In this document: one piece after another, positions 7,944 to 53,215 of the stretch
Layout of the letters: each line of letters opens with the position of its first letter
Position numbering within the stretch: position 1 is the first letter of the stretch
Virus record (IMG/VR): IMGVR_UViG_3300044557_000185
Coordinates: 44,379-108,378 of that record
Source of the DNA: a virus
Lineage: Duplodnaviria; Caudoviricetes
Length of the DNA: 64,000 bases
Reading direction: 5' to 3' (one strand)
Notes under the pieces: model-generated
Database searches by the model: none
What the model was told of the DNA's origin: nothing
Seen by the model: the letters and a program-made list of their open reading frames with translations, nothing else
Translations under genes and position numbers: made by a program

Positions 7944-8067
7944 TTAATGACGTTGTTCTCTGTTGATACAAAATTTTAGTATATATAATTATATACATTC
8001 TATACTAGATGTTCACAGAGATAAACGTGATGATTCTGATGATATACTGAATGACATTCTAATATCA
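7944..8067 (+). repeat. dispersed intergenic palindrome, copy 1
   Basis: GACGTTGTTCTCT...TATATAATTATATA...AGAGATAAACGTG plus ATTCTGATGATATACTGAATG tail. Confidence 0.9.
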
Positions 8068-8337
8068 TTATCTATCATTCTCTACTTCTTTTAGTCTAGA
8101 GTCTATTCTGTCTATAGACTTAGACATAGAATCGATCTTGCCATTCATTAGTATAAGCATGTCTGTCATAAGACTAACTTGCTTCTCTTCATCAATATCA
8201 GAATCGTCTTTTTCATGCCATTTGTAGCTATGCTTCGGAACGTCTCTGTTTTGCTTGCTAGACCATACTGAAAGAAAAGAGAATATTGCTGTTACTAAAG
8301 CTGTCAGCAAAGAAGATGACAATATAGTCTGCATCAT
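8068..8337 (-). CDS. small membrane protein, holin-like
   Basis: N-terminal TM helix and C-terminal coiled coil. Confidence 0.5.
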   Translation of the reverse strand: MMQTILSSSLLTALVTAIFSFLSVWSSKQNRDVPKHSYKWHEKDDSDIDEEKQVSLMTDMLILMNGKIDSMSKSIDRIDSRLKEVENDR

Positions 8338-8774
8338 TTTTGTCTTGCTTTCTTTATAGCTATAGCTTCATTTACTTTCTTGACATCGCACAATCTATCA
8401 AAGCCAAGAGAAGCAAAATTAGCTGAAACAACAAGATAGTAAGATGCACGTATCAATTCATCTTGACTAGTCAAAGTAAGACATGCTAGAACGAAATCTA
8501 TAGCTGTAAGAATAGAAAGAGATATCAGAAATATAGCTTCGACATTCTTGATCTGTGTAAGCTCTGAAAATAGCACGCATATACACAAAACTACTAAAGC
8601 AAGTGATACTATATTTCTGTGAGTGTATGTTTCATATGGCTGAAGCAATCTCTCAGTAGTGATAACTCCAAAGAATACGACTGTGAAGTATGTGAAGAAC
8701 TTTCTGAAGAACAGCAAAAGCGATACTTTCTCTTTTTCTGTCTTATCTTTATTAGTACGAGATGCTCGTTTCAT
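8334..8774 (-). CDS. multi-pass membrane protein (possible holin)
   Basis: About 4 hydrophobic helices; likely start MKRASR at 8774. Confidence 0.55.
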   Translation of the reverse strand: MKRASRTNKDKTEKEKVSLLLFFRKFFTYFTVVFFGVITTERLLQPYETYTHRNIVSLALVVLCICVLFSELTQIKNVEAIFLISLSILTAIDFVLACLTLTSQDELIRASYYLVVSANFASLGFDRLCDVKKVNEAIAIKKARQK

Positions 8775-8784
8775 AGCATCAACT

Positions 8785-9390
8785 CTATTCTGAATCTGGT
8801 CTGATGTCAATGTCATCAATTGTGAAGAAGTCTGATGTGTCAATTCTTGCTGCAAAATTGATGATGCTGTTGAAGGAGATGTAGTTTGTGTATACATAAG
8901 TATCACTGTCCCAAGGTATGCCTTTTGATACTGAATCTGAACCGATTTGCAAGCTAGTCGTATCGATGTCTATCTTAGCGCCTGAAGCTTTATGCAAATA
9001 TGACATAAGCACTGAGCTATTAGGTCTAAGATGAGAGAACATTATGATATTGATGTAAGCATCAATAAGTCTGTTTCTTTGCTGAGACGATAATGCGTAG
9101 ACATAGACCGAGCATGAAGCTTTGCATTTTCCATCTTGAACAGGCATGCCATTGTAGTCTTCATGCCATCTGCCTACATTGGCCTGTTGTATCTCTGATA
9201 TGTTTGCTGCGACTCTTACGAATGGGAACTCGGTCTTGACTTGAGGGAATTCCGGATACGTGTTCTTGTCTTCGTCAAGCTGGTCTAAAGCAGGATCTAG
9301 CTCATGCCACAGAGATGGCTTGATCGATTCTCTCAGACCAAGCACGAAAGCGTTCTTGATTGAAGTCGTCAAGCCATCTGTCATATTCAT
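8785..9390 (-). CDS. tail terminator / head-tail completion protein
   Basis: YPEFP...FPFVRV and VYALSSQQRNRLID patterns; adjacent to sheath. Confidence 0.55.
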   Translation of the reverse strand: MNMTDGLTTSIKNAFVLGLRESIKPSLWHELDPALDQLDEDKNTYPEFPQVKTEFPFVRVAANISEIQQANVGRWHEDYNGMPVQDGKCKASCSVYVYALSSQQRNRLIDAYINIIMFSHLRPNSSVLMSYLHKASGAKIDIDTTSLQIGSDSVSKGIPWDSDTYVYTNYISFNSIINFAARIDTSDFFTIDDIDIRPDSE

Positions 9391-9513
9391 ATCCTATCTT
9401 TATACTCAGTATATACTCAGAATTATCACGTTTATCTCTGTGAACATAGCATATCATGTCTATATAATTATATATACTCAAAAATCTAAGTTAACAGAGA
9501 ACAACGTCGTAAT
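9391..9513 (-). repeat. dispersed intergenic palindrome, copy 2 (inverted)
   Basis: CACGTTTATCTCTG...TATATAATTATATA (9461-9474)...CAGAGAACAACGTC; fills the intergenic gap. Confidence 0.9.
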
Positions 9514-10833
9514 TCACTCAGAATCTACTGAGAATGTGACATATATCCAGTCGATAGATGCAAGCCACTTGTACTTGAATTCTACGTCTATCGTGCCAGG
9601 AGAGCCTGCTCTGTTAGTCACAGACACGTCTGAGAAGTCTGCTATTATCTGCTGAGACTGCTGCTGAGTAAGAATCATGTCCACTTTAGCAGACATTTCA
9701 GACAGAATGACTGCTGTAGACGGCAATCCTACGTATATGTCTAGAGCAGTTCTCATTATTCTGATGATAGACTGCCTTACAGCGCCATAAGACCATTCTA
9801 CGATGCTGGACTGAGTAGTAGCTATGCCATGGCGTATTCTCATCGACGAATTCGACTTCTCGATGACTGTGCAGCCGGATGCTGCAAGAGTGTTCTTCTC
9901 TTCATACAGGAAGTTCTGGACTCCATAGAAGCCATACACATTGCTTCTTGTCAGAGACTCCCATACTTGAGACTGCATGATAAGGCCGCATACTGCTGCT
10001 GAGAACAACCAGCCTGGAGCATTTACTGGATTGCTGGAAGACGATGGCAGAATGCTTGCGATATTGTTCGGTATGAACATTATGTCATCGTTGTTCAGAT
10101 TCCTTGCGAAATTGCATAGCTGGTCTACGGAATATGTAGAAGATGTGCCGTCTAAAGCGAACACTCCTCGTCTTTCAAGAGCGTTAGAATTGCACCAAGC
10201 TACATGAGCAGCTACAAGAGACATCTCGTCAGCAGAAAGACCAGCGAAAGTGACAAGAGTCACGTCTTCCTGTATCTTTAGGCTTTCAAGAGCGCTCTGC
10301 AAAGTATTGCCTGGATTGTTGTCTGCAGCGGCGATGACTGGTACTATGCATATAGAAGTAGCGCCATTGTCAAAAGCGAAGTCTGCTGCAGCTGAAGCTG
10401 CAGACACTACATTGCCATTGTCATCGAAGCCAGTGCCATAGAATGCTTCCACAGACTGTTTAGAGAACCATCTCAATGGCTCGAAGAAGTTGTCTGGCAG
10501 CCATGCGTAGCTTATCGATATCGGCTGAGTTGATATGTCTGCATTAGTTATCGTTATAGAGAAGTTCGACAGATCTTCTGACTGAGCTACAGTGTAGTCA
10601 GTGTCTTTGACTAGAGCTGTGCCATCTTGAGAAGCAAGAGATACTTTGCTAAGAATAAGATTCTTGGCGTAGATAGTGACTGTGGAGCCATTCGAAAGCA
10701 GTCTTGTAGTAGTAGTAGACGGATAGTCTGCAAGCTTTGCGATCAATGCCATAGTGCTTGGCTGCACAAAAGCTGTAGAGCCATTAGATACTGCAGGTGC
10801 ATTGACTATTACTGAAGGTGGTATGTATGCCAT
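9514..10833 (-). CDS. tail sheath protein
   Basis: MAYIPPSV start, AFDNGA, IRHGIATT, C-terminal IDVEFKYKWLASIDWIYVTF. Confidence 0.85.
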   Translation of the reverse strand: MAYIPPSVIVNAPAVSNGSTAFVQPSTMALIAKLADYPSTTTTRLLSNGSTVTIYAKNLILSKVSLASQDGTALVKDTDYTVAQSEDLSNFSITITNADISTQPISISYAWLPDNFFEPLRWFSKQSVEAFYGTGFDDNGNVVSAASAAADFAFDNGATSICIVPVIAAADNNPGNTLQSALESLKIQEDVTLVTFAGLSADEMSLVAAHVAWCNSNALERRGVFALDGTSSTYSVDQLCNFARNLNNDDIMFIPNNIASILPSSSSNPVNAPGWLFSAAVCGLIMQSQVWESLTRSNVYGFYGVQNFLYEEKNTLAASGCTVIEKSNSSMRIRHGIATTQSSIVEWSYGAVRQSIIRIMRTALDIYVGLPSTAVILSEMSAKVDMILTQQQSQQIIADFSDVSVTNRAGSPGTIDVEFKYKWLASIDWIYVTFSVDSE

Positions 10834-11358: not shown

Positions 11359-12282
11359 TTATCTTTCTTTAGTAAGAGCATTTCTATAATTGTCAATTTC
11401 TTGCTCCTTAAAGAGCTTGAAAGTCATATCGTGTTCTTTGCAATATTCCTTTGCAGCTTGAACTTTAATCTGAACATTTGCAAAGGTGACAGTATATGCA
11501 GACTTAATTTCGACTAAGTCTTTGTGACCATCTTTGAAGGTGACAAGAAAGTCTGGAAAATAACGATGCCCCGTTGGAAGCTGTATCGTAAAGTTAGGTC
11601 TATCAAAATCTTGAATGCTGTCATCCTTCAACATAAGCTCGCAGAAAGTCTGTTCGTAAGTCGAATCTGTAGGAATAGTCTTACCAGACTTTGTGATAGC
11701 TTTACCACGTATACCATTCCATTTTTCAATCATAGCTATTCTTTCTTCATCAGAAAGATTCGCCCAACGCTCTTTTACTATTTCACTCATTAGAGCTCTA
11801 TGTTCTGGTGATCTGGCTATAGCTCGTTTCTTTGCAAAGCATTCAGGAGTATGAAGCTTATAATTGTCTTTATGCAAACGATACTGTTCTTTAGCTAGTT
11901 CTCTAAGCTTTTTATTAGCTTCTGGCGTGCTTAGTGCTTCATGAATGTGTTGACAACGAACAGCTTTCTTTTCAGGATCTTCCCAAGATCGCTTGATATT
12001 CTTTGCATATCTAGCTTTGTATTCTGGATCGTTATTGCGCTTAGATATGCTTTCAGACAAACGCTTCCTATAATCTTCATTCTGCCAGTTTCGCTTTGAC
12101 AGTTCCGAAAGCTTTTCTCTTACTTCTGGCGTATTCAGTGCCTTTTTAGTATTTTGAGAGATCTTTCTAGAAACATCTGGATTATGCTTGTTTGCTTTAT
12201 GATTGTGATAGCCTCGTATGTTCTTGCATTCTTTATTGCATATTTCGCAAATTACCACGACATCCTCCGTTCCCACTCTCAA
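11359..12282 (-). CDS. free-standing homing endonuclease (C2H2 finger, basic helical repeats, TnsA-N-like PD-(D/E)XK domain)
   Basis: CEICNKEC..H...H; repeated REKLS/KRLS motifs; YFPDF...LVEIKS; likely start GTG at 12258 after GGAGG. Confidence 0.75.
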   Translation of the reverse strand: MRVGTEDVVVICEICNKECKNIRGYHNHKANKHNPDVSRKISQNTKKALNTPEVREKLSELSKRNWQNEDYRKRLSESISKRNNDPEYKARYAKNIKRSWEDPEKKAVRCQHIHEALSTPEANKKLRELAKEQYRLHKDNYKLHTPECFAKKRAIARSPEHRALMSEIVKERWANLSDEERIAMIEKWNGIRGKAITKSGKTIPTDSTYEQTFCELMLKDDSIQDFDRPNFTIQLPTGHRYFPDFLVTFKDGHKDLVEIKSAYTVTFANVQIKVQAAKEYCKEHDMTFKLFKEQEIDNYRNALTKER

Positions 12283-12343
12283 TTACAGCCATCTTTCAAA
12301 GCCTTCCTTAATGAATCCTATATTGTATATTGTATCCGGTAGA

Positions 12344-14566
12344 TTATGAATTGTAGGAATTTGCGCCCTCTCTTACTATGTCTACCGAATTGATGTACGG
12401 TATCATAGAATCCCATAGTCTGAAGTCTTTGTCATAGCTGCTTGCTAGATAGTGCCTGTACTTCTCAGTAATGCCAATGCCAGAGCCTATCTTCTTGCCA
12501 GCATTAGTACCGAATGATACGATCTTGCTAGCATCTGCAGGCGTAGCTACCCTGCAAGCGTCTATGAATGAAGACGTGGAGTTGCGCACAGCAGCTTCTA
12601 TGTCTGAGAACTGTATCCATGAGCCATATGTGAGAGTAGATGCCCACTCTTTCAGAATAGACTGGACTTGCAGCAATACAGCGTCGTTGGATGCACCAAG
12701 CACATTCTGTATGACCAGCCTTATGTCAAGACCGACAGAAATAGCTTGTCTAGAAATGACATCCGTAGAGATCTGTCTGTTCGCATCAAGAAGAGCGTCT
12801 GTTATTGCTACAGTGCGATTGTATGAGTAGCTGAAGTTCATGACAGACGAGTCTGATGGGACAGATGAGCCTGGGACCCATGCTATCGCATCTATCTCGC
12901 GCTGAGTTCCAGCATTCAGATTCTGCTGCTTCAGAAGCCTGTAGTTCGTACCCATAACATACATTGCGCCAGATATGTTCAGTGACTCTGGGATAGTCAG
13001 CACTGGAGAGAACCCAAGGACCTGCATCTTAGTGCCATTCTGAGGATGCGTTCCGTCTTCGTAGTAGTAGTCGTTCATGTTCCATATCGAGCCAGCAACA
13101 TTGTCGATAGTCTTGGAATTGACTTGAGCGCATTCTGTCATGTCATAAGACTCTACGCCATCTACGAACACATCCACTTTGTTGACTAGCGGAGGATTTG
13201 CTGCAGGGTCATTTCTTGACTCTATAGAGCAGTATTCATGCTTGAAGAACAAGAAGTCTCCGACATTGAAATTGACGCTAGCATTGAAAGCGTCTGCAAG
13301 CTTTGCTCTGTAGACAGCGTCTGTCCATATTTCTTGTCCTCCAGATATAGGAGCAGATACTTCGCATTTGAAGCCAGATCTGTCTGGCAAAGTCAGCATA
13401 GCGCCTGATGCTACAGATCTTGGAGCTAAGTCTTCAGACTCCACTGGTACCGCTGCAGATGCTATAGCTCCCGAATAGATAGTGGCATCCGACTTAGTCG
13501 AATACACATTGCCGCTAGAGTCCTGAAGTCTTGTGCCTGCCTTAAGGACATAATTAGACTTCTGAGCTACATCGAAGCCGAATGAGACTGTTCCAGTAGC
13601 AGATGAGCCAGAGAATCTGCCTAGACCGATCTTAGTGCCAAGTGCATCCAGGTCAGCTCCGTACATGTTGTCAAGGTTCAAGTCTGCAGAAGACTTGTAC
13701 AGCTTAACGACTGGCTGAGCGCCATATGATGTGTCTACGAAGTAGTCTTTGCCTTCTACATATGCATGCTCATTAGCTGTTCCTGGCTCCTTGACAAGAT
13801 ATGTCTGTCTTGGCCATGTGAACTTTGAGCATGGTATCATAGACTGGAAGCCGATGCCACCGCCTAGAGATTGCGGAAGATTGACGACTTCAAGCTGCTC
13901 TTCCCATCTCTCGATAGGGCCTATGACATTGACTCTGCTGTTGCCGACTACATTCATAGCAGTGCCCATGTATGCATCTTCAGTGCCAGCTACGTTTCTC
14001 AGGAATGTAGCTCGTATTCTAGCTCTAAGTTCTGCGTCAGTCTCTACATCATAGCCGCCAGTGAAGTTGTATCTGTTCTCGACTTTCAGGTCTTTTATGT
14101 AGAAGTTGCTTGCTATCTGATTGATCGAATAAGCATTAGCATTTCCCTGAACGCCTGGAGTAGTGCATGTTGCATTGACGAATACTTCATATTGAGCTAC
14201 AGGTATGATTGCTGCATCATTAGTGCTGTATATCAGCGAGCCGTCTGTTATCTGGAAGTCAGAAGGTATGTCTACTTCTACAGTAGCTGGCGTGTCAAGA
14301 TAGAATCTGACTTGACCTGTAGCTTTCAATCCGCTCTGTCTGCCAAAGCCAAGCCATGATGCTAGAGCATCAAGATCTGCGCCGCTTTTTGAGTCTATGT
14401 CGAAGAATGACATGTTGACTTGAGCATTGATGTCTATGCCAGATGCTACAGAAGCCGCGGCATCCAGTATCTTTCGTATCGGGTCTCCGACATCTGTGCT
14501 TATGTTCGGGTCGATAGTGTTCAGCGCTTTGACAAGCTGGTCAGACCATTCAGCAGGAGTCTTCAC
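12344..14566 (-). CDS. baseplate J-like wedge protein
   Basis: GADLDAL...G.GR...ATG.V.F and FTGGYDVETDAELRARI motifs. Confidence 0.9.
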   Translation of the reverse strand: MKTPAEWSDQLVKALNTIDPNISTDVGDPIRKILDAAASVASGIDINAQVNMSFFDIDSKSGADLDALASWLGFGRQSGLKATGQVRFYLDTPATVEVDIPSDFQITDGSLIYSTNDAAIIPVAQYEVFVNATCTTPGVQGNANAYSINQIASNFYIKDLKVENRYNFTGGYDVETDAELRARIRATFLRNVAGTEDAYMGTAMNVVGNSRVNVIGPIERWEEQLEVVNLPQSLGGGIGFQSMIPCSKFTWPRQTYLVKEPGTANEHAYVEGKDYFVDTSYGAQPVVKLYKSSADLNLDNMYGADLDALGTKIGLGRFSGSSATGTVSFGFDVAQKSNYVLKAGTRLQDSSGNVYSTKSDATIYSGAIASAAVPVESEDLAPRSVASGAMLTLPDRSGFKCEVSAPISGGQEIWTDAVYRAKLADAFNASVNFNVGDFLFFKHEYCSIESRNDPAANPPLVNKVDVFVDGVESYDMTECAQVNSKTIDNVAGSIWNMNDYYYEDGTHPQNGTKMQVLGFSPVLTIPESLNISGAMYVMGTNYRLLKQQNLNAGTQREIDAIAWVPGSSVPSDSSVMNFSYSYNRTVAITDALLDANRQISTDVISRQAISVGLDIRLVIQNVLGASNDAVLLQVQSILKEWASTLTYGSWIQFSDIEAAVRNSTSSFIDACRVATPADASKIVSFGTNAGKKIGSGIGITEKYRHYLASSYDKDFRLWDSMIPYINSVDIVREGANSYNS

Positions 14567-17627: not shown

Positions 17628-17717
17628 ATAGTGGATTTACTAGTCTATATAATTATATGGATACTAAACAACGATTTCAATCTGGATAAACCTGACAACA
17701 ACTGGAATGCTTCAGAT

Positions 17718-18046: not shown

Positions 18047-18520
18047 ATGCAAGACTACGATTATTCGATGACTAAAAGCACTTATAAAGGTGTTAGCTAT
18101 TATGAAGCTGAAGGTCAGACTGAAGCTTATGATCTTGGAAAGACCACTATTGACATTCTTAATGACAATAAAGATCGACTTCTTAGCAATGGTAATGAAA
18201 CAGTAATCTTCAATGGTTATTCTGAATCTGGCTATTATTGCAAGAGCATTAAAATGTCAAATGCAATTGTCTATTCTCCAATTGAGAAGAATATCAAGTC
18301 TGTTCTTTATGCTAAAGACGAATTCTTGTCAAGTGACAATTATGATTCAGAAAACGATTATGCAATGGCTCTGCAATCATATCTAATCGAACGAAAGAAG
18401 CAAATTGTAGCTCGTGGTGGATATGCAAAGATTGGGCTTTCATTCTATATGGAGTCTATGACATTAGACTCTGATATCGTAGATGAGATTGTGCATATGA
18501 ATGATAGCCTATTGATGTGA
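18047..18520 (+). CDS. hypothetical protein
   Basis: AAGGA RBS and promoter upstream. Confidence 0.75.
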   Translation: MQDYDYSMTKSTYKGVSYYEAEGQTEAYDLGKTTIDILNDNKDRLLSNGNETVIFNGYSESGYYCKSIKMSNAIVYSPIEKNIKSVLYAKDEFLSSDNYDSENDYAMALQSYLIERKKQIVARGGYAKIGLSFYMESMTLDSDIVDEIVHMNDSLLM

Positions 18521-18549
18521 TTTTAAGAAAGACAGAAAGAATTGGAAAA

Positions 18550-18930
18550 ATGAGCGTTTCTGCTCAGCAGATACACTGGCTTGACATAGCTACAGAACTT
18601 GCTAAGCTCAGTTCATGCAAGAAGAAACACGGTGCTTTAGTCGTAAGAAGCAACAATGTTCTGTCTGTCGGAATCAACAAGATGCGAAACAATCCTGCAT
18701 ACATGCTAGACAGACCATCAGGCATATCTGTTCATGCTGAAGAGCAAGCTTTGAAGGCATGCAGAGGTGATGCAGGCAATTCTACTATCTACGTAGCTAG
18801 AGTCTATTCTGATGGCACAGCCACGATGTCTAAGCCATGCAAGAGATGCCAGAAGCTGATGAAAGCAGCTAACGTAAAGAATGCAGTGTATACAGACTGG
18901 CATGGCAATGCTTGCATCATGCATGTATGA
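18550..18930 (+). CDS. cytidine/dCMP deaminase family protein
   Basis: HAEEQAL and PCKRC zinc motifs; KHGALVV. Confidence 0.85.
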   Translation: MSVSAQQIHWLDIATELAKLSSCKKKHGALVVRSNNVLSVGINKMRNNPAYMLDRPSGISVHAEEQALKACRGDAGNSTIYVARVYSDGTATMSKPCKRCQKLMKAANVKNAVYTDWHGNACIMHV

Positions 18931-19052
18931 TTTACGACGTTGTTCTATGTGAACTTGAAGTATTAGGTCTATATAATTTATAATACCTATTACTGAAGTA
19001 TCACACGATTAAACGTCGTTATTATGATGATATACTGAATGCAAATGTAGAA
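18931..19052 (+). repeat. dispersed intergenic palindrome, copy 3 (between convergent genes)
   Basis: ACGACGTTGTTCT...TATATAATTTATAA...AAACGTCGT plus GATGATATACTGAATG tail. Confidence 0.85.
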
Positions 19053-21554
19053 TCATAATCCAACTTTTCCAGTATTCGTCTCAACTGGAGAAGATATCTG
19101 CACATTTGTAGCTCCGCCATTAGTAGCGGACCAAGAATGAGTTACAGACTCTACGAATACAGTAACGCCTGCACCTTCTAGCCTGAGTCTTATGCCTGGC
19201 AGTATCTCTGGTCTGAATGTTATCTTCAAAGTATTCGAGAAGCAAGCTGCCCATCTCTCCATGAAGATCAGCAAAGCTTTGACAGCTGTCATAGTCGAGT
19301 CTATTATGTAGTTGTCAGTAGTATCGTATACTGAGACCCCGAATCTTTGCAATAGCTGAGATGCTGTCTTGCATCCTGTTATCGATATGTCTACAAGCTT
19401 GAGAAGACTGTCACCCTGCTTCTCCAATGATATAGTGCCATTTGATTGCAGAAGTCTTTGCACTTCATCGAATGTGCCTAGAGTTACTCCATACTGAGTG
19501 TCCATATGCTCTCTAGTAAGCAAGTAGACATGAGAAGTGTACATTGACTTGTTGAAGTCTGCAGAGTAGTCTACTATCTCGTACTGAGGTATCGATATCT
19601 CGTTGTTAAGAATGCCAGATGCATGAAGCTTGCCGAAGTAGTCTGGAACGAATGCTGCAAACGATCCATCTGGCAAAGTCATGAACTCTCTCATAGACCC
19701 TTTGCAAAGCGATTGCACGAATTCAAGCGCAGGCTTGTCATTGTACAGAGCTAATGGGCCAGTAAGAGCTTCAGACTCATAGCTTGGTGTCTGCCCTACA
19801 TAAGTGACATACTTGAACAGCTTGTATGCTAGGTCTTCAGCAGTAGCAGTAGCAGAGTCAGACGAACTGCCATCTGATGAGCCAGAGTCGTCAGAAGACC
19901 CAGTCACTCCAGTAGGTCTAAGATACCCTGCAAGCGAATAGCCACCAGAGTTCTTTGGCATCGTCATTCTGAAGACAGTTGGTATTGACCCTCCCTGCGA
20001 CAAGCAGTCCACGCCTGATCCCTTGTCAGAAAGCACTATAGCGACATGCCCATATCCTCCATCACCAGGACTGCTTCTCCACAGCACTATGTCGCCTTTC
20101 TGGCATGTTTCGCTTGGAGGTATCTTCTTCAGCACATTTCCGCTAGATCCTTTCGGCATAGCATTGTAGAAAGCGCCATTTCCTCCAGCATCTTGCATCA
20201 TCTCTGGACTGCCCATGCTGAAGCCCAAGACTTCCTTGCCGTAAGACAGGTACAGATCCCAGCACTGATGCCCGAAAGCTCCATCTACATCAAGAGATGG
20301 AGTGCCATCAGCATGCTTCTTCAGGAATGCATCTAGCTTTCTATCCATAGCTGTCGATCCAGTAGCTGAATTTGATGTATGCGAACTAGACGAGCCAGAC
20401 GAAGAAGAGCTGTTAGTCTTACCAATCTGCTTGTCTATGAAAGCTTTCCACTTGTCAAGAGTCTTGTAAGTAGTATTGCCAATCTTAAGATAGGCATTGC
20501 TTGGAAGCTTCAGATCAGCTTTGCCTTTTTTGTCTTTGATATTGAGACCAGTGAAATAGTAGAATATGATGCAAGCAGCATCTTCACTTCCTGTGCCTTT
20601 TGATATGTCTAAGCATATAGCTTTCATAGCTTTGTCCTGAGCAGATGCTGAGCAGTCTTTAGCTGCTTTGTCGATCTTAGCCCATTTCTTCATCTGCTCT
20701 TGAGTCAGACCATACTTGCCAGTATGACCTTCTCCATCCATATGCGTCCAGTCATAAGTGGTATTGCTGTTTGCATTGACGAATCCAACTTTTTTGCCCA
20801 CATCATTCATGTTAGATTTAGCATCAAGATTCAGCATTTTCTTGATGACGCCTTGATAAGAATCTACATCTCCAGCTGCAGCAGATCCATTTTTGCTAGA
20901 AGAAGCATCAGACATGTTAGTTGGACCGAACAGCTGCTGGAATATAGACAGAGCCATGTCATCAGACTGAGCTTTGCCGTCAGTTATCGATCCTATTATG
21001 TCTTCTACGAACTTATTCTGATTAGGGAACTTAGCTATCTTTATCATGCTAGACGGAAAGCCGCAGACATCTTGCAAGAACTGCACTAGCTGAGACCCTG
21101 ATTCTGCGTCATTGCTTGACTTGCTATCATTGCTAAGTACAGACATTGTGCCGTTCCAGTACTTCTCTATAGCTTTAGTGGAATACGGATCCCAGTAGAT
21201 GTAGTGCAAGTCGCCTATAGCATCTTCACAATCGAATGAGTAGCTTATATTGTAGAAGCCGAAAGCTGGGCATTTCGATATCTTGCCAGTGAAAGCTTCT
21301 ATAGTCTTGTCGTTCTTTAGGAAGCTTATGTGCACAGCATCGCCAGGGTGCAGCTTCCATTTACCAGCGCTGTACTTGCCCTGAGAATACGATCCTGCAT
21401 TGTTCAGAGTGACTGAGGCTGTAGATATAGCAGACTTTCGTCTTGATACAGTGACAGACTCAACATCATCAGACACGTCTATTATGGAGTTGTTTGCAAG
21501 ACGCACCATGACTTCCACTCCAGAATAGAAAGCTTCTGTTACTTGATTGCTCAT
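19053..21554 (-). CDS. baseplate hub / tail-associated lysin with CHAP-like amidase domain
   Basis: Hub N- and C-termini (RPEILPGIRL, VESVTHSW); internal DVDGAFGHQCWDL...GDIVLW...YGHVAIV. Confidence 0.8.
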   Translation of the reverse strand: MSNQVTEAFYSGVEVMVRLANNSIIDVSDDVESVTVSRRKSAISTASVTLNNAGSYSQGKYSAGKWKLHPGDAVHISFLKNDKTIEAFTGKISKCPAFGFYNISYSFDCEDAIGDLHYIYWDPYSTKAIEKYWNGTMSVLSNDSKSSNDAESGSQLVQFLQDVCGFPSSMIKIAKFPNQNKFVEDIIGSITDGKAQSDDMALSIFQQLFGPTNMSDASSSKNGSAAAGDVDSYQGVIKKMLNLDAKSNMNDVGKKVGFVNANSNTTYDWTHMDGEGHTGKYGLTQEQMKKWAKIDKAAKDCSASAQDKAMKAICLDISKGTGSEDAACIIFYYFTGLNIKDKKGKADLKLPSNAYLKIGNTTYKTLDKWKAFIDKQIGKTNSSSSSGSSSSHTSNSATGSTAMDRKLDAFLKKHADGTPSLDVDGAFGHQCWDLYLSYGKEVLGFSMGSPEMMQDAGGNGAFYNAMPKGSSGNVLKKIPPSETCQKGDIVLWRSSPGDGGYGHVAIVLSDKGSGVDCLSQGGSIPTVFRMTMPKNSGGYSLAGYLRPTGVTGSSDDSGSSDGSSSDSATATAEDLAYKLFKYVTYVGQTPSYESEALTGPLALYNDKPALEFVQSLCKGSMREFMTLPDGSFAAFVPDYFGKLHASGILNNEISIPQYEIVDYSADFNKSMYTSHVYLLTREHMDTQYGVTLGTFDEVQRLLQSNGTISLEKQGDSLLKLVDISITGCKTASQLLQRFGVSVYDTTDNYIIDSTMTAVKALLIFMERWAACFSNTLKITFRPEILPGIRLRLEGAGVTVFVESVTHSWSATNGGATNVQISSPVETNTGKVGL

Positions 21555-25988: not shown

Positions 25989-26110
25989 TGAACTACTTCT
26001 GAGTTAAAGATTCAGAAGCTTCCAGTTTCATCGAGTCCTGCGTATTCGAAAAAGATTCGAATGCGTCTAGTAGACTCTCCACTGGCTTAAAGTCCCTACA
26101 TTCCATAGGT
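25989..26110 (-). ncRNA. putative TnpB omega/reRNA scaffold and right end
   Basis: Hairpins overlapping the tnpB 3' end (CCTATGGAATGTAGG; ATTCGAATCTTTTTCGAAT; CTTCTGA...TCAGAAG) ending GTAGTTCA. Confidence 0.6.
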
Positions 26111-28497: not shown

Positions 28498-28566
28498 CAG
28501 ATTAACTGTAGTAATTGAAGCTTGTATATATAATTATATACTAACAGTTTACTGCAATTAATCTGA
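28498..28566. repeat. divergent palindrome, copy 5, abutting the TerL C-half start
   Basis: CAGATTAACTGTAGTAA...TATATAATTATATA...TTACTGCAATTAATCTG. Confidence 0.7.
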
Positions 28567-28607
28567 GTGATTCATGAGAACATGCTAAATTGCATTTTTG
28601 CATAATG

Positions 28608-29735: not shown

Positions 29736-29795
29736 CTTTAACCCTTTCGTTTATGTTTCTATCTTGCTTTCAATCAGCATGTTCATGTCATATTA

Positions 29796-29922
29796 ATATC
29801 CTATCTTTATACTCTGTATATTCTCAGAATGACGACGTTTATACGTGTGAACCTCTAGTATTCAGTATATATAATTATATATGCTTACAATTCTAAGTCA
29901 TTAGAGAACAACGTCGTAAATC
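29796..29922 (-). repeat. dispersed intergenic palindrome, copy 6 (inverted)
   Basis: GACGACGTTTATAC...TATATAATTATATA...AGAGAACAACGTCGT. Confidence 0.9.
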
Positions 29923-30080
29923 TACTCATCTAGAACGTTTTTGCAATATGACTTGTCAAAGTCTTCAAAGATACGAGTAGCTTCTTCATAGCTAATTCCG
30001 AACTCTCTGAACAAGTAGTCTATGCTGAAGCCTGATTGTATGTATCTATAGAATGGAATATCGTCGCAGCTAGTCATATG

Positions 30081-33211: not shown

Positions 33212-33273
33212 GATTCAAGCCTTTCATTCCTTTCATGTCATCGATGTAAGCTATTTGTTTAGCTTATAGTTAT

Positions 33274-33302: not shown

Positions 33303-33315
33303 ATCGACAGCTAAA

Positions 33316-33440
33316 GTTATGACGTTGTTCTCTAGTAACATAGAATATGAAGCATATATAATTATATAGACATGATACTGTAAGTTAGCAGAGATAAACC
33401 TCGTTAATCTGGTGACATGCCAGTGTCATATGTATGATTG
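33316..33440 (+). repeat. dispersed intergenic palindrome, copy 7
   Basis: ATGACGTTGTTCTCT...TATATAATTATATA...AGAGATAAACCTCGTTAATCTGGTGAC. Confidence 0.9.
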
Positions 33441-33445
33441 AAAAA

Positions 33446-34504: not shown

Positions 34505-34630
34505 ATTTCATATCCTAAATCTATATCCAGTATATCCTACGATTAACGACGTTTAATTGTGTGAACTTCTAAGCATAAGTATTATAAATTATATATACTT
34601 AAGCTTTCGTATCAATCTAGATCAATCTGA
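34505..34630 (-). repeat. dispersed intergenic palindrome, copy 8 (inverted, degenerate)
   Basis: AACGACGTTTAATTGTGTGAACTT...TTATAAATTATATA...TAGATCAATCT. Confidence 0.75.
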
Positions 34631-34651
34631 TACTTTCATTACTAACTACTT

Positions 34652-38195: not shown

Positions 38196-38330
38196 TTCTA
38201 TTTCATATATTAGATATGAATCTAATGTATCCTCAGTGTTACGACGTTTATCTCTATGAACTTCAAGAATACAGTCTATATAATTATATATACATGCTAT
38301 TCTAAGTCATCAGAGAACAATCTAGTTAAT
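38196..38330 (-). repeat. dispersed intergenic palindrome, copy 9 (inverted)
   Basis: ACGACGTTTATCTCT...TATATAATTATATA...AGAGAACAATCT. Confidence 0.9.
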
Positions 38331-38345
38331 GCTAAATGCTGCATA

Positions 38346-45361: not shown

Positions 45362-45392
45362 TCCTTTGTCTTGTTTTTTATTTTGTAATTAT

Positions 45393-45421
45393 ATTATATA
45401 ACACTTTTTAAAGAAAGTAAA
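45393..45421 (-). promoter_or_regulatory. conserved phage promoter immediately after the TerL N-half stop
   Basis: TTTACT-N17-TATAAT. Confidence 0.8.
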
Positions 45422-45428
45422 ATCTATG

Positions 45429-47637: not shown

Positions 47638-47848
47638 ACATAGCCTTTCTGCTCTTGAAGTCAGCATAAGCATCTTTCAGCACACAAGAGAATGCTAATA
47701 CGTCTTCAGGATATGAGAATCGCATGTCATTGACTTCGCCATTAGAATCTGCTACTACAAGGACATCGTTCCCATTGCTGTCTTCTTCAAAATGATAAGA
47801 AAGAAGCGATGGCTTGCTTTCGTCTTCAAATACTATCTCTGTGCTCAT
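47627..47848 (-). CDS. hypothetical protein
   Basis: 73-aa ORF. Confidence 0.55.
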   Translation of the reverse strand: MSTEIVFEDESKPSLLSYHFEEDSNGNDVLVVADSNGEVNDMRFSYPEDVLAFSCVLKDAYADFKSRKAMLYE

Positions 47849-48306
47849 TTTCTGATGCCAAACTTATGAGAGTCTGTCATAGTCCTATACTCTGCTCCAG
47901 CAACAGGATCTACATACAGCAGAATGGCCAGATACTTGTAGATAGTTATTGCTGACACATTGAACGCTTTGCTAGCATCTGCAACAGTATGCCCTTCTTT
48001 CACAAATTCTGCGATTTCTGAAATCTTGTCAAGAAGCTCTTGCATGTCTTCTTTATGGTACTTACCGCCAATGCTCTTCATATTGTCTTCGAAGACATCG
48101 CTAGCAGATAGATCATGCTTGAAAAGATATGCTTTTATGAAGCGTCTTACATTGTATGGTGACTTGCCATACTGATTAGATGCGTCTTTGAAGCTCTTTC
48201 CATCATTGACATCTTTGATTACAGACTCTACCATCTCATCAATCTGAGATGCTTTAGCGTCTAGCACTTTCTTATTGAACTGAAGTCTACTTTTCAAATC
48301 TTGCAT
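47845..48306 (-). CDS. tandem helix-turn-helix protein
   Basis: GKSFKDASNQYGKSPYNVRR and GHTVADASKAFNVSAITIYKY. Confidence 0.65.
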   Translation of the reverse strand: MQDLKSRLQFNKKVLDAKASQIDEMVESVIKDVNDGKSFKDASNQYGKSPYNVRRFIKAYLFKHDLSASDVFEDNMKSIGGKYHKEDMQELLDKISEIAEFVKEGHTVADASKAFNVSAITIYKYLAILLYVDPVAGAEYRTMTDSHKFGIRK

Positions 48307-48832
48307 AATTGCTATCCAATTCTCTTAAATGCTTTGCAGCTAGCTCTACATCCTGCTTGTACATAGACATGACTATATCTGACTTGTTGCCAAGATTGAA
48401 CTCTTGCTTGCAGAACAGGACTACATCTAAACAATCGGCTGCTTTCACTAAATGCCACACTCTGCCATACTTGGATACTGAATAGTCGAACTTTTCTAGC
48501 TTGCTATTCAGTATCTTTTGCTCAGAATTATCATACGCTTCAGAAAAATGCGGATTGTCTACATGAGTATTGAATGGGATGTCAGCAAGCCATATCTCTG
48601 GCAAGTCATGCGTCAAAGCACGTTTCAAAGCATTCAATTGCTCGAATTCTGGAACGTCATAGACTTTGAATAGCAATAGCAGCAACTGAGCTACAGATCC
48701 ATGATGCTCATAGAGATTCTGCCTATGCAAAGTAGGCTTTCCATTGTATCTGATTACATATGCTTGTCCGCTAATCTCATTAGCAGAATCGATTACTGAA
48801 TCTACGATATCTTCGTCAGTCTGCATCAGCAA
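48287..48832 (-). CDS. HD-domain 5'-deoxynucleotidase (YfbR/DatZ-like)
   Basis: IRYN...QNLYEHH, LTHDLPE...DIP, VKAADCLD. Confidence 0.85.
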   Translation of the reverse strand: MLMQTDEDIVDSVIDSANEISGQAYVIRYNGKPTLHRQNLYEHHGSVAQLLLLLFKVYDVPEFEQLNALKRALTHDLPEIWLADIPFNTHVDNPHFSEAYDNSEQKILNSKLEKFDYSVSKYGRVWHLVKAADCLDVVLFCKQEFNLGNKSDIVMSMYKQDVELAAKHLRELDSNYARFEK

Positions 48833-49320
48833 GCCCCGATTCTTTCTGGTTCCTTACCATCTTTAAGATAAGAAGTAAGAGCTTCACTTGAAAGGAAGAT
48901 ATGCTTCATAGATTGTGCAAGCATTAGATTGAATGGCACACCTTCTGGAAGCAATGGTGCAAAACCAAATGTTGGAATTCCTAAAGCAGAACCATAGCCG
49001 CATTCCCAGATAGTGCCAGAATCAAGTCCTTCTGTAGAAGCAATAAGGACATCTGAACTTCGCATAGCAGAAAGATTTGCATCGAAATTAGCTTGTCGTT
49101 CAGCTTCTGTTGGATTCTTTCCAATCTGTGGAGAATCAAAACGCGGGTCAAAAAGCTCAAGTTCATCAAAAGAATGAAGAACATCCTCAAGCATATTCAA
49201 AGCTTTCATCTTATTTGGCGAAAACCATCCGGCGCACAAATAGGCCTTTATATTGCCTTCTGGCTTATCAATAGCTTGCCTGAATTCCTCTGAAACCTTC
49301 ATATTACTCTCCATATTCAT
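48826..49320 (-). CDS. nucleoside 2'-deoxyribosyltransferase / nucleotide N-glycosidase (DNPH1/MilB-like)
   Basis: AYLCAGWF, FDPR, DSGTIWECGY, FNLML. Confidence 0.85.
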   Translation of the reverse strand: MNMESNMKVSEEFRQAIDKPEGNIKAYLCAGWFSPNKMKALNMLEDVLHSFDELELFDPRFDSPQIGKNPTEAERQANFDANLSAMRSSDVLIASTEGLDSGTIWECGYGSALGIPTFGFAPLLPEGVPFNLMLAQSMKHIFLSSEALTSYLKDGKEPERIGAC

Positions 49321-49347
49321 AATAAAACTATTTAATATAATTATATA

Positions 49348-49896: not shown

Positions 49897-49899
49897 GAC

Positions 49900-51105: not shown

Positions 51106-52088
51106 TTGTCTATATTGCCGTTCTTATTGAAGTCGTCTAAAATAGCTATTTGCTCTGAAGATACATCGTCAAGAAGACTTCTGTCATTCTTGAAGACGCG
51201 CAATATGTTAGCAAATGATCTGTCATTCATGATGATGTATATGAAGTTCATGCATTGATAGATAGCGAATCTGTTGGTTTGATATTCAGAAAGCTTTCGT
51301 TTGTTGTAGAAGCAAAGATCTATCATTTTCAGAATTTGATGAATATAGCACCACAGAACTTCTACAGGAATATTGTCTATGCCTTCATCAAACAAAATCT
51401 TCTGAACATCTAGCAATCTTGCAAAGGGAGTAGATGCATCAAAAACATCTGATGAATTAATGACGTTATGCAATGTATATTTGTAGATTGGTGTTGCAAT
51501 TCTGTATATAGCGTCAGCATCTAGCAAAGTATCATAAGCAAAAGGTATGTCTACCCATCCAGCACCTTTAGCTTCTACAAAACGATGATTCTCTATAAAA
51601 GCAGAAGAGTAAAGAATAGACCAGATAGCATTATGATGATCTAGCATCATAGGAATGTCTTTGTTCTTCAGAAGACCATCTTCGTAGAAAGCTAATTCAG
51701 ATTCTGGAATGCAAAGCTCGCTTTCTGGTGTCTGTCTCTTGTAATACGAGCACTTGATCATGTCATAGTAGCATGGCAAGTTACTGACTTTTTGCAAGAC
51801 TTTGTTTAGATTGACATAGTCTATTCTGTCATCTGCTTCTGCAAACATGACATAATCGAAATCGTCATACTTTATGCAATCAAGCAGAAAGTTCATTTCT
51901 GCTCCATAGCCAATGTTCTTATCGTGTCTGAAAACTGCTAGCTTGCTATTGCCTTCTATAGAGATTGGGATTCTTGACCCGTCATCTACTACGAATGTCT
52001 TAGCGTTGTTGACATGCATAGCATCATTGACGATATTGACAAGCGATGCTTCTGAGTCTTTCTCTGTAATCAGTATTGCTAGCTTCAA
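51087..52088 (-). CDS. GT2 (GT-A) glycosyltransferase, soluble
   Basis: VVDDGS, NIGYGAEMN, DYVMFAEADD, AIWSILY. Confidence 0.85.
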   Translation of the reverse strand: MKLAILITEKDSEASLVNIVNDAMHVNNAKTFVVDDGSRIPISIEGNSKLAVFRHDKNIGYGAEMNFLLDCIKYDDFDYVMFAEADDRIDYVNLNKVLQKVSNLPCYYDMIKCSYYKRQTPESELCIPESELAFYEDGLLKNKDIPMMLDHHNAIWSILYSSAFIENHRFVEAKGAGWVDIPFAYDTLLDADAIYRIATPIYKYTLHNVINSSDVFDASTPFARLLDVQKILFDEGIDNIPVEVLWCYIHQILKMIDLCFYNKRKLSEYQTNRFAIYQCMNFIYIIMNDRSFANILRVFKNDRSLLDDVSSEQIAILDDFNKNGNIDKWISSL

Positions 52089-53023
52089 AGATTCACATCC
52101 TCAATGATCGGCTGTCCGCATTCAGAGCAGAATTTCGGGTTCTTGAATTCAGAATACTTTCCTATGAATGTAGCGATAGACTTGACATCTGAAAGCTTCT
52201 TCATTCTAGTCTCTGCAGACAATGAAGCTTTTATTGCATCAGATATAGTAGAAGCATCTGACAATTGCAATTCTTCTAGTACAGCTTTCTTAGCTTTAGA
52301 AGTCATACGAAAACCGGAAGACATGATATTGAAGAATACATTGATGTCTTCTATTCTATTTTCAGAAGCTAGATTAAGCGCATCAAAGACATTCTTGAAT
52401 AACATGACGTATTCAATTTTTTCTGTTATAGACGAATTGTCTACTTCATCATCGTCATCGACCAATACTTCAATAGCTGTTTCTTCAAGTGGATTGACAA
52501 GAATAGGATTGCAATACACAGAATCTTTCTTGTCTGTTCCAATATAAAGATTGTAGCCTTGATTGAATGTACCGAACTTAGAAGTAGCAACTTCGTCTGC
52601 AAAATAAATCCACATTGAGATGTGCTTGTTGTCAATCTCTGGTTGAATGACATTGACTTCATTTGCATCAAACACTTCTGAAAGCTCTGAAATGATGCTG
52701 TCGACAGGACGAATGTTATCTGATTCAATGACTTCTGAAATCGCATTGCCTGAGATAGAGAATGTAAGATTGCCTTCGAAACGCATCAGGAAATACATGA
52801 TGTTCATCGTACGCAAATCTGAAGGGATAGATTCTATATACTTGTTTGGCAAATGCAGAATAGCTGAAAGTTCTGATATTGCAACAGGCGAAATATCGTA
52901 CAGATTTTCATCGTCTTTGAATTGCAGCTTGTCGTCAGTATATTTGCAATCTATTCCTCTATGAATGACTTTATCAAGATTGTCGTCTATAAATGCTTGC
53001 AGATCTTTTAACGTAGTTGACAT
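52085..53023 (-). CDS. hypothetical protein, C-terminal zinc ribbon
   Basis: 312 aa ending FCSECGQP. Confidence 0.7.
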   Translation of the reverse strand: MSTTLKDLQAFIDDNLDKVIHRGIDCKYTDDKLQFKDDENLYDISPVAISELSAILHLPNKYIESIPSDLRTMNIMYFLMRFEGNLTFSISGNAISEVIESDNIRPVDSIISELSEVFDANEVNVIQPEIDNKHISMWIYFADEVATSKFGTFNQGYNLYIGTDKKDSVYCNPILVNPLEETAIEVLVDDDDEVDNSSITEKIEYVMLFKNVFDALNLASENRIEDINVFFNIMSSGFRMTSKAKKAVLEELQLSDASTISDAIKASLSAETRMKKLSDVKSIATFIGKYSEFKNPKFCSECGQPIIEDVNL

Positions 53024-53052
53024 TTGAGTCCTTTCTATTCAACTATATTTAT

Positions 53053-53081
53053 ATTATATATCATTATTGAACAATTGTAAA
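53053..53081 (-). promoter_or_regulatory. conserved phage promoter
   Basis: TTTACA-N17-TATAAT. Confidence 0.8.
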
Positions 53082-53090
53082 ATCGAGTAC

Positions 53091-53215
53091 AGATTAACGA
53101 CGTTGTTCTCTAATGATCTAGAATTTTTGGTATATATAATTATATATCTTTGATACTTGAAGTTCATAGAGATAAACGTCGTAATTCTGGTGATATACTG
53201 AATAGCTATCTAATG
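53091..53215 (+). repeat. dispersed intergenic palindrome, copy 10 (closest to consensus)
   Basis: ACGACGTTGTTCTCT...TATATAATTATATA...AGAGATAAACGTCGTAATTCTGGTGATATACTGAAT. Confidence 0.95.

Follow-up and report, generated by a model that had tools for sequence, protein, structure and literature searches.

A palindrome of fixed form recurs between the genes of an uncultured phage (genome of 108,378 bp, host probably an actinobacterium), which raises the question of what it does there, and whether it is read as DNA or as RNA. The non-coding punctuation of phages is poorly known beyond a few model phages, and their genomes are mostly read gene by gene. We analyzed a window of 64,000 nucleotides, which is part of this genome, and followed the element into the rest of the genome and four relatives that were fetched whole.

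Anatomy and copies of the element

The element is an 86-bp mirror-symmetric dyad with a tail of about 40 nt on one side. Two 21-nt inverted arms, with the consensus TACGACGTT[G/T][T/A]TCTCTGTGAAC, are placed exactly 43 bp either side of a central core, TATATAAT|TATATA. The dyad is AT-rich, and a poly-G/poly-C stem is absent. The five genomes together provide 68 copies for counts of position, 55 measurable for span and 45 directional ones. Of the 55, 53 have an outer span of exactly 86 bp (43+43), whereas the spacers are constant in length but near random in sequence, with an identity of only 0.44–0.49. This strongly confirms the proposal of an earlier, sequence-only reading of the locus that spacing is conserved more than sequence. 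The arms are conserved at 0.77 between lineages whose proteins are 25–60% identical, against 0.80 between copies within one genome, and the core is likewise equally conserved in both comparisons. A fixed size of 86 bp, three conserved boxes, and spacers free to vary define the element unusually sharply.

Isolated arms are absent apart from one half copy. In one stably inherited copy (five relatives), the outer box is missing from one arm. The outer box was also considered as a mini-palindrome (GATWAACGWCGTTWATC), which was dropped because nothing beyond ACGNCGT is conserved in the distant lineage. The tail folds with weak energies on both strands; some copies carry small tail stems with compensating changes, and others a direct repeat instead.

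The core TATATAATTATATA, with at most one mismatch, occurs at 10 sites in the window, where shuffled sequence would give 0.02. By profile search, the window holds nine full copies and one decayed copy. The ten palindromes reported earlier are thus a genuine family, except that the one at 28498 is a decayed remnant. The members placed at 27331, 34505 and 38196 are true ones (27333, 34506 and 38199), each with a variant or degenerate arm, while the two bare cores listed near 17645 and 49335 lie outside the family and are the -10 regions of ordinary near-consensus promoters. The sites are as follows, with + denoting a tail on the right.

7935..8072 (+): copy 1, dyad 7947–8031 (85 bp, the one short copy), core 7982–7995; the tail, 8032–8072, meets the stop codon of gene 8068–8337 (−), and the 71-nt gap towards gene 5911–7863 (−) has a promoter of its own
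9381..9520 (−): copy 2, dyad 9425–9510, core 9461–9474, tail 9381–9424; it begins 3–6 nt past the stop of the tail-sheath gene 9514–10833 (−), and its tail extends into the RBS and ATG of gene 8785–9390 (−)
17646..17659 (−): not a family member; -10 region of a TTGAAA-17-TATAAT promoter (17680–17652, minus strand)
18922..19063 (+): copy 3, dyad 18934–19019, variant core CTATATAATTTATAAT; between the convergent genes of dCMP deaminase, 18517–18930 (+), and an 833-aa tail/lysin protein, 19053–21554 (−), overlapping both stop codons
27333..27445 (+): copy 4, core 27367–27380, good arm 27402–27416, other arm degenerate
28498..28607 (no strand assigned): decayed (nhmmer E = 0.1), read as a shortened copy; the retained core, 28527–28540, is the promoter -10 region of gene 27451–28497 (−)
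29788..29925 (−): copy 5, dyad 29832–29917, core 29868–29881, tail 29788–29831 with RBS-ATG extension
33308..33444 (+): copy 6, dyad 33319–33404, core 33355–33368, tail 33405–33444; followed, in the sense of transcription, by a D1-type promoter, 33250–33305, and gene 32252–33211 (−)
34506..34631 (−): copy 7, good arm 34546–34560, other arm variant or degenerate; the tail adjoins the ATG of gene 33878–34504 (−)
38199..38336 (−): copy 8, dyad 38241–38326, core 38277–38290, tail 38199–38240 ahead of gene 37902–38183 (−); one variant arm (38312–38326) without the outer ACGACGTT box
49334..49347 (−): not a family member; -10 region of a TTTACA-17-TATAAT promoter, read directly, of gene 48826–49320 (−)
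53087..53220 (+): copy 9, nearest to the consensus, dyad 53097–53182, core 53133–53146; the tail, 53183–53220, meets the stop codon of the primase gene 53216–54133 (−), and a D1-type promoter, 53029–53084, and gene 52085–53023 (−) follow

The tail extension with RBS and ATG is common to copies 2, 5, 7 and 8. In the relative G005, a full element lies upstream of the orthologue of gene 27451–28497. Beside copy 4 we notice a TnpB gene, 25993–27288 (−), overlooked in the earlier reading and inserted just behind the promoter adjoining the copy; at this site, the relative G002 has an intact element and lacks tnpB. TnpB is an RNA-guided nuclease, not a recombinase. Extending the profile scan to the genome and its relatives, as had been suggested, yielded 15 full copies and one half copy in the whole genome and 11–14 further copies in each of the four relatives.

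Gene ends and the two-way core

As described earlier, the copies are intergenic, occur in both orientations, often fill the whole gap and include one at convergent genes in the window. Across the five genomes, a stop codon faces the element within 12 nt in 51 of the 68 copies, and only 3 are without any facing gene end. A start codon, on the other hand, lies within 12 nt in only 8 of the 68, and 13 copies have no facing gene start within 400 nt. Most reliable convergent junctions bear a copy (one junction in G004 has two in tandem); divergent junctions are too few for the absence of the element from them to be significant. Among the genes preceding elements are those of the DNA polymerase, primase, ligase, major head protein, tail sheath and giant tail protein. 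The copy after the DNA polymerase gene is present in 8/8 clade members recovered from IMG/VR via their DNA polymerase and in 0/72 more distant relatives. It is ancestral to the clade and predates the split of lineages whose polymerases are 52–56% identical. Members of the clade, with proteins now only 25–60% identical, still carry the element at gene ends.

The core consists of two consensus -10 hexamers back to back, each with a -35-like box, T(T/G)(G/A)AC, 16 nt upstream. It is the -10 motif of the phage itself, and the identical 14-mer occurs in the -10 region of two ordinary consensus promoters. A promoter scan detects the elements on both strands, and promoters are typically marked, as here, by a conserved box separated from TATAAT by a spacer that varies in sequence but keeps its length. 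The sense TATAAT is perfect in 40 of the 45 directional copies and the antisense one in 32. In the distant lineage, an asymmetric core, TATATAATTATCCATA, is aligned with transcription in almost every directional copy, G004_50334 being the clear exception. Some downstream genes leave no room for another promoter; the endolysin gene, for one, begins 19 nt past the copy at genome position 39470. Downstream of 'reverse' copies there is a separate D1 promoter, so that the embedded promoter appears redundant at these sites. We rejected an ECF-type promoter (GAAC ... CGT), of which the order and spacing are wrong. No sigma-70-family domain, including sigma-70 region 2, was detected in the phage genome. 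The phage encodes a WhiB-like factor, the only conserved regulator found; proteins of this type normally act through sigma-A.

Promoter boxes on both strands, together with sites at gene 3' ends and between convergent genes, would also suit a bidirectional promoter that mainly makes antisense RNA reading back into the upstream gene, serving temporal shut-off or polymerase collision, with the sense start being secondary. We consider this improbable from the sequences at hand, as elements stand after early (replication) and late (structural) genes alike and the sense -10 is the better kept one in the distant lineage.

A proposed stop at the dyad: hairpin or bound protein

Our best explanation, proposed tentatively from these comparisons, is that the element may be transcriptional punctuation at gene ends, a stop-and-restart cassette working from either side. 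RNA polymerase arriving from the upstream gene would be stopped or attenuated at the dyad, and host sigma-A polymerase would start anew at the embedded -10, reading into the next gene. Being symmetric, one unit would be usable in either orientation and at convergent genes. The stop could come from a long imperfect arm-arm hairpin in the read-through RNA, acting as a U-tract-less 'I-shaped' terminator or as a processing or stabilising hairpin. Alternatively, a protein, or the polymerase itself, may occupy the boxes. Between these two mechanisms, we lean slightly towards the hairpin.

Folded as RNA, dyads of 92 nt reach -17 to -29 kcal/mol; 6/8 folds have z-scores of -3.0 to -5.3, and the other two about -1. 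Base-pair covariation was not found: 69.6% of the cells are paired against 69.2% with shuffled partners (123/500), two-sided pair changes are fewer than in shuffles, and broken pairs such as C-C and G-G recur uncompensated. The sense strand has no excess of G-U (98, against 99 A-C), the transcribed strand is not favoured in folding energy, and RNAalifold gave no consensus structure for the 15 copies of the genome itself. The lack of covariation and of a sense-strand G-U excess indicates that the dyad is kept as sequence boxes and not as a selected helix. A U-tract after the stem is absent, UAAUYC or UUAUUC standing in its place, and a terminator scan misses the elements. In addition, conservation of the arm sequence across deep divergence is unlike the need of a plain terminator. 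In favour of the cassette, canonical terminators show no enrichment (the window has one clear case), and most D1 promoters directly follow an upstream stop codon with no terminator between, so that other punctuation would be needed.

The same tests bear on the main competing explanation, a pure DNA-level site. Here a clade-specific or host protein would bind both inverted 21-bp arms, whose phase to the AT-rich core is constant, forming a two-sided transcription roadblock or insulator, or an operator timing the embedded promoters. The 86-bp geometry that is invariant despite randomised spacers, the lack of both covariation and G-U bias, the arms as conserved between lineages as within a genome and never alone except in the half copy, and the confinement of the family to one isolated phage clade all point in this direction. 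However, the tandem-HTH protein at 47845–48306, which the sequence-only reading had offered as a binder, has no detectable homologue in the distant relatives that bear the element, and the sole conserved regulator found is WhiB-like. Moreover, the outer box is missing from one arm of a stably inherited copy, and palindromes at gene ends usually act through RNA. We regard the pure protein site as possible but doubtful. From the multi-subsite protein-binding element suggested earlier, the DNA-level, multi-subsite character with fixed geometry is retained, and the functions given as examples are not. Lsr2, RNase III and type II topoisomerase domains were not found in the phage genome.

A more novel version of the protein site has a clade-specific factor on the double-stranded DNA of the arms and polymerase on the back-to-back -10 core. 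These would form one complex of fixed geometry, terminating or insulating transcription from both directions, which we judge unlikely. If true, this would be a sequence-specific, protein-dependent bidirectional terminator-promoter, without a described counterpart in bacteria or phages. If the stop-and-restart reading holds, a large phage organises its transcription units with almost no canonical terminators, and the element would offer a small insulator module that works in either orientation. Reading of the arms by a protein would amount to a new mechanism of termination or insulation. Either way, the family lends itself well to testing how comparative analysis can separate dyads read as DNA from RNA hairpins.

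Distribution, inheritance and known systems

The family is present in nine IMG/VR contigs, all belonging to one isolated clade, and no copies were found in about 185,000 prokaryote genomes. In the INPHARED phage collection, neither nucleotide nor protein search found close relatives, and the sole match was the tail sheath, 24–26% identical, in Mycobacterium, Gordonia and Rhodococcus phages. An Rfam search matched no family to the element, tRNA being the only match, and no relevant paper came up in a full-text literature search with motif strings. For this uncultured clade, the element offers a convenient marker.

Terminal inverted arms, dispersed copies in both orientations and two TnpB genes adjoining copies bring to mind a non-autonomous mobile element, either a MITE or a REP- or PATE-like derivative of IS200/IS605 ends tied to the resident TnpB genes. 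Such an element had been among the earlier suggestions, along with a check of presence and absence at orthologous sites. All copies are syntenic in the three close genomes G000, G001 and G002, with no solo presence or absence, and one site is conserved since before the split of the lineages with 52–56% identical polymerases. TnpA/RAYT is lacking, the Y1 transposase (PF01797) being absent from the complete genome, and the roughly 185,000 prokaryote genomes searched gave no copies. We also rejected TnpB as a partner: G004 and G005 have no TnpB homologue found and still carry elements, and the four insertion sites, including one without a full element, are explained by insertion behind promoter -10 boxes. 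The mobile-element reading is largely refuted, and we consider it very improbable. Checked for target duplication, the element flanks (TTA/TAA) extend the palindrome itself, with no empty site for comparison.

A role in recombination was weighed as well, with the elements as conserved homology 'linkers' for module shuffling between phages, or as initiation sites of recombination or replication. Half-element swaps between paralogous copies do occur, with the crossover in the core (e.g. L075 vs G005_56025), and close relatives differ by some replacements with an end point inside an element (G000 35156, 71724 and 82552). D1 promoters aside, non-coding nucleotide homology between the two lineages was found only in the elements, which account for 94 of 120 and 87 of 108 BLAST matches. 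However, coincidence with synteny breakpoints, which the sequence-only reading had proposed to examine, is not enriched: 7/28 indel breakpoints have an element within 60 bp, compared with an intergenic baseline of 28%. Gene conversion would homogenise the spacers too, yet these are near random. Recombination or resolution sites for gene shuffling are thus not supported. Nothing specific speaks for replication origins or packaging sites, and no specific feature of a replication origin was seen. Overall, we give the linker or initiation-site reading little probability.

On our best explanation, the element would be a stop-and-restart cassette similar in concept to the promoter-early stem-loops (PeSLs) of T4-type phages, and differently built. 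PeSLs are dispersed intergenic cassettes (Arbiol et al., 2010, PMC2839356; Comeau et al., 2014, PMC4122927). Both are dispersed, conserved and about 100 bp long, join a terminator-like stem-loop with a sigma-70-type promoter, partly include the SD and ATG of the next gene, and have copies that recombine with each other. The sigma-70-type promoter inside the repeat is recognised here by sequence, as TATAAT with the -35-like box 16 nt upstream on both strands. PeSLs place a G/C-rich stem-loop ahead of a promoter that faces one way, whereas here a two-way, promoter-like core is centred in an AT-rich 86-bp dyad. The element also differs in its arms conserved as sequence, its invariant spacing and its occurrence in both orientations. 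It follows core genes rather than ORFans, and a concentration of indel and replacement breakpoints between close relatives, as expected of PeSLs, is not seen at it (7/28). The phage lineage is actinophage-like, with a WhiB-like gene, and unrelated to the T4-type.

Among bacterial palindromes, REP/BIME, ERIC, Correia/CREE and RUP are reported to affect termination and mRNA stability, with promoter activity for Correia elements. Like the element, they are imperfect palindromes (about 35–150 bp) that follow genes in either orientation and lie in transcribed intergenic DNA. In contrast, they are chromosomal and linked to RAYT or IS transposases or polymorphic in insertion, whereas the element is phage-only and syntenic, with no transposase. 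To our knowledge, the central pair of consensus -10 hexamers and the exact 86-bp size have no counterpart.

Cluster A stoperators and Cluster K SAS/ESAS are dispersed repeats of actinophages. A further one is the 17-bp dyad TGTTCGGNNNCCGAACA of Cluster O (PMC4351075). As with the element, many short conserved copies are spread genome-wide, mostly between genes, with positions kept among relatives; their function is unknown or repressor-linked. These repeats are single sites of 13–17 bp, whereas the element is an 86-bp three-part unit plus tail, with no sequence similarity seen.

Warman et al. are said to have described, in 2021, bidirectional promoters that arise from -10 symmetry. In these as in the element, one short symmetric AT-rich stretch contains the -10 hexamers of both strands, with divergent starts a few bp apart, as predicted here. 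The hexamers of the element overlap by 2 bp, so that the predicted starts are about 15 bp apart, compared with 18 in the -10-symmetry promoters. The element is distinguished by its long conserved inverted arms and by its place at gene ends rather than at divergent gene starts.

Copies and geometry of the element

Allowing one mismatch at most, the 14-mer TATATAATTATATA is present at 10 sites in the window, where 0.02 would be expected. By a profile built from seven copies, the full copies number 9 in the window and 15 in the whole genome, which also has one half copy. The sequence-only reading had proposed a family of ten, of which nine stand as full copies; the tenth, at 28498, is a remnant in which decay has spared only the core, and we read it as a shortened element copy. 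Three window copies (27333, 34506 and 38199) each carry one variant or degenerate arm. Two supposed bare cores drop out of the family, with 17646-17659 being the -10 region of a TTGAAA-17-TATAAT promoter and 49334-49347 that of a TTTACA-17-TATAAT promoter.

Written with its tail on the right, the element opens with a left 21-nt arm, (T)TACGACGTT[G/T][T/A]TCTCT-GTGAAC. The core, (G)TATATATAA|TTATATATA(C), has ~13 variable nt on each side, and is followed by the right arm, GTTCAC-AGAGA[T/A][A/C]AACGTCGT(AA). Beyond the right arm lies a tail of ~40 nt, beginning ATTCTGRKGATATACTGART.... From the first base of ACGACGTT to the last base of AACGTCGT, the span is exactly 86 bp in 53 of the 55 measurable copies from five genomes, that is, 43 bp on each side of the AA|TT axis.

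The mean arm identity is 0.80 among the paralogous copies of this genome and 0.77 between this genome and the distant lineage (G004 and G005), and the corresponding values for the 16-nt core are 0.84 and 0.75. Spacer identity, at 0.49 and 0.44, is near random for the composition. The earlier claim that spacing is conserved more than sequence is borne out by these spacer values together with the constant 86-bp span. The conservation of arms and core, while the spacers are near random, shows that purifying selection acts on the boxes and their geometry. We set aside a recent burst of copies, and likewise gene conversion on its own, since either would have homogenised the spacers too.

Relatives and comparison with known repeats

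The source record, of which the window covers bases 44379-108378, is a single sequence of 108,378 bp with terminal repeats, estimated to be 100% complete. The window has ~41% G+C, and nearly every gene in it lies on the minus strand. We identified structural genes (tail sheath, baseplate wedge protein, major head protein and portal protein), replication and recombination genes (DnaE-type DNA polymerase, helicase, primase, NAD-ligase and a UvsX-like recombinase), two Holliday-junction resolvases and nucleotide-modification genes. Two further features are listed here.

57761-58066, minus strand: WhiB-like transcription regulator (PHROG matches; 45% identical to a G004 protein)
61750-61823, minus strand: the one tRNA gene (Rfam RF00005, 60 bits)

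The WhiB-like protein is the only conserved transcription factor found, and the closest tail sheaths, 24-26% identical, come from Mycobacterium, Gordonia and Rhodococcus phages. Both suggest an actinobacterial host, despite the 41% G+C. The domain search of the phage genome revealed no sigma-70-family domain; Lsr2, RNase III and type II topoisomerase domains were likewise looked for there and not found. The phage collection searched (INPHARED) holds no close relative.

By an exact-pattern scan of IMG/VR, the element family is confined to nine contigs, and the same pattern has no match in prokaryotes (~185,000 species, one genome each). Four relatives were retrieved whole. G001 and G002 share 85-95% DNA identity with this genome and carry 13 and 14 copies; G004 and G005, whose proteins are only 25-60% identical to those of this genome, carry 14 and 11. 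Copy positions are identical across the three close genomes and partly so in the distant lineage. A DNA polymerase search recovers an isolated clade of eight contigs whose polymerases are 52-97% identical, the next relatives being at most 30% identical. An element directly follows the polymerase stop codon in all eight clade contigs and in none of 72 more distant loci. Most inter-lineage BLAST matches (94 of 120 and 87 of 108) run from element to element, and the others are coding matches at 65-78% identity plus matches to a second repeat family, the D1 promoters.

The polymerase gene of G002 contains an in-frame insertion of ~1.2 kb (G002 11389-12582; ORF of 1556 aa vs 1165 aa), which is likely an intein or homing element. 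The equivalent site here is genome ~2519-2539 (in the fetched stretch L001), within the DNA polymerase gene. The polymerase gene is similarly long in another relative, L075.

Copies do exchange sequence: in some paralogous pairs, one half is almost exact and the other half different (98% vs 63%; 100% vs 77%), which places the crossover in the core. The post-polymerase copy of L075 has the left half of another copy. Among described concepts, the PeSL of T4-type phages comes nearest; it is a ~100-bp cassette of a stem-loop terminator and a sigma-70 early promoter that mediates module shuffling (PMC2839356, PMC4122927). Composite logic and exchange between copies are common to both. Unlike PeSL, however, the element has no separate G/C-rich stem-loop upstream of a one-way promoter and shows no breakpoint enrichment, and the lineage is not T4-type. 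A recombination linker or origin would suit the exchange between copies but not the lack of breakpoint enrichment, and we consider such a role improbable.

In size and position, the element is like the chromosomal palindromic repeats REP/BIME, ERIC and Correia, but their transposase link and insertion polymorphism are absent from it; that it is a MITE seems very improbable. Actinophages have dispersed dyad repeats without assigned function, such as the 17-bp repeat of Cluster O (PMC4351075), but these are short single sites, unlike the element. The full-text literature search found no paper containing the element motifs, and no Rfam family matches.

Gene ends, promoter-like core and a possible stop-and-restart role

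Across five genomes, a gene 3' end faces the element within 400 nt in 65 of 68 copies and within 12 nt in 51, and a start codon lies within 12 nt in only 8, the copies of this genome, G001 and G002 being orthologous and not independent in these counts. In 13 copies there is no facing gene start within 400 nt, and 12 of these lie between convergent genes. Most reliable convergent junctions have a copy; divergent junctions have none, although they are too few for significance. We discounted small opposite-strand ORFs, since the ORF picker behind the gene calls is crude. The genes followed by an element are both early and late: DNA polymerase, primase, ligase, major head protein, tail sheath and the giant tail protein. 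At a convergent junction of G004 (62500-62737; fetched stretch L052:2500-2737), two complete elements stand in tandem, 19 nt apart.

Relative to transcription, this lineage uses the two orientations about equally. A forward copy has its dyad after the stop codon, and its tail enters the RBS and ATG of the gene that follows. A reverse copy has its tail at the stop codon; beyond the copy is a gap of 19-96 nt (44-96 in the window), which usually holds a separate promoter among those checked. The D1 family, with 13 copies in the window (17575-63619, minus strand; e.g. 30849-30904, 45369-45424 and 53029-53084), consists of near-consensus sigma-70-type promoters, GATTTTAC(A/T)-17-TATAAT, set in TATATAAT. 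Most are directly 3' of the preceding stop codon. G004 has D1 copies that are 84-88% identical, and also the arrangement of a reverse copy plus a D1 promoter.

By sequence, the element core is two of the phage's -10 motifs placed back to back. The promoter scan calls elements on both strands and places a -35-like hexamer (TGAACA, TTGATA, ATGACT, TTAACT) at 16 nt. TATAAT preceded by a conserved box, with a spacer between them that varies in sequence but not in length, is the ordinary signature of a promoter. TATAAT is perfect on the sense side in 40 of 45 directional copies and on the antisense side in 32. An antisense promoter would agree with the calls on both strands, yet there is little chance that this is the element's role: the core in G004 and G005 is asymmetric (TATATAATTATCCATA), and its intact hexamer points with transcription in almost all directional copies (one clear exception, G004_50334).

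In the terminator scan, canonical hairpin-plus-U terminators are no commoner than in shuffled sequence. The window has a single convincing one.

30950-30926, minus strand: the only convincing canonical intrinsic terminator, AAGCCCAGC...GCTGGGCTT then TTTTTC

This terminator is just upstream of a D1 promoter, an arrangement like that of PeSL.

As the best single account, though at somewhat less than even odds, we tentatively propose that the element is a punctuation cassette at gene ends for the stop and restart of transcription. The dyad would stop or attenuate transcription arriving from the upstream gene, and a new start by sigma-A polymerase could follow at the embedded -10. The stop might come from the read-through hairpin, acting as a terminator without a U-tract or as a processing or stabilising hairpin, or from a factor, or the polymerase itself, on the boxes. 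Terminators without a U-tract are reported for actinobacteria. Stop-and-restart would explain the tie to stop codons, the use of convergent junctions, the independence of orientation, the promoter-grade core with its directional bias in the distant lineage, and the lack of other terminators.

The 92-nt units can fold as RNA, at -17 to -29 kcal/mol; z-scores lie between -3.0 and -5.3 in 6 of 8 folds and are about -1 in 2. Across 52 aligned copies, selection on pairing is not seen: 69.6% of cells are paired vs 69.2% with shuffled partners, 123 of 500 shuffles reach the observed value, and pairs changed on both sides are rarer than in shuffles. The two variable positions of each arm vary independently between sides, and broken pairs (C-C, G-G, C-A) recur uncompensated. 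The transcribed strand has neither a G-U excess (98 G-U, 99 A-C mismatches) nor a folding energy advantage. Five relatives stably inherit a variant in which one arm lacks the outer 8-nt box. With no sign of selected pairing, what is maintained in the dyad is a pair of inverted sequence boxes and the fixed distance between them. This is consistent with recognition on double-stranded DNA; an RNA hairpin, though compatible with it, gains no support from it. The comparative tests favour a DNA-level reading of the boxes, whereas location and general precedent favour RNA. A purely protein-binding site, the second-ranked reading, is in our view rather unlikely.

TnpB genes beside elements

Two TnpB genes lie beside elements, one in the window and one in L002, a fetched stretch of this genome.

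Window 25993-27288, minus strand: TnpB gene, OrfB_IS605 and Cas12f1-like TNB domains
L002:1094-2380 = genome 19094-20380, plus strand: TnpB gene, OrfB_IS605 and Cas12f1-like TNB domains

The proteins, of 431 and 428 aa, are 64% identical, and the whole genome has no TnpA. The tnpB sites differ in close relatives. tnpB1, at genome 19052-20376 here, occupies in G002 the counterpart of window 7907-7974; G002 lacks tnpB2, and G001 has a tnpB at the decayed-copy site, window 28527. At three of the four sites, a promoter -10 TATAAT precedes the cassette's downstream end by ~12 nt or less; the fourth site, that of tnpB1 in this genome, adjoins an element tail and has a TATAAT promoter at its upstream end. 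These placements suggest a TAM or target in the TATAAT region and movement of tnpB between co-infecting phages.

We notice that tnpB1 is flanked by a perfect 36-bp inverted repeat, which is made of an element arm (genome 18906-18941 and 20392-20427; L001/L002, outside the window) and extends into spacer bases that vary among all the other copies. The right-hand repeat copy is a half element cut short at the stop codon of a 2418-aa tail gene, and its tail forms the sequence behind the tnpB1 3' end, the presumed guide. In G002, the empty tnpB1 site holds one ordinary element.
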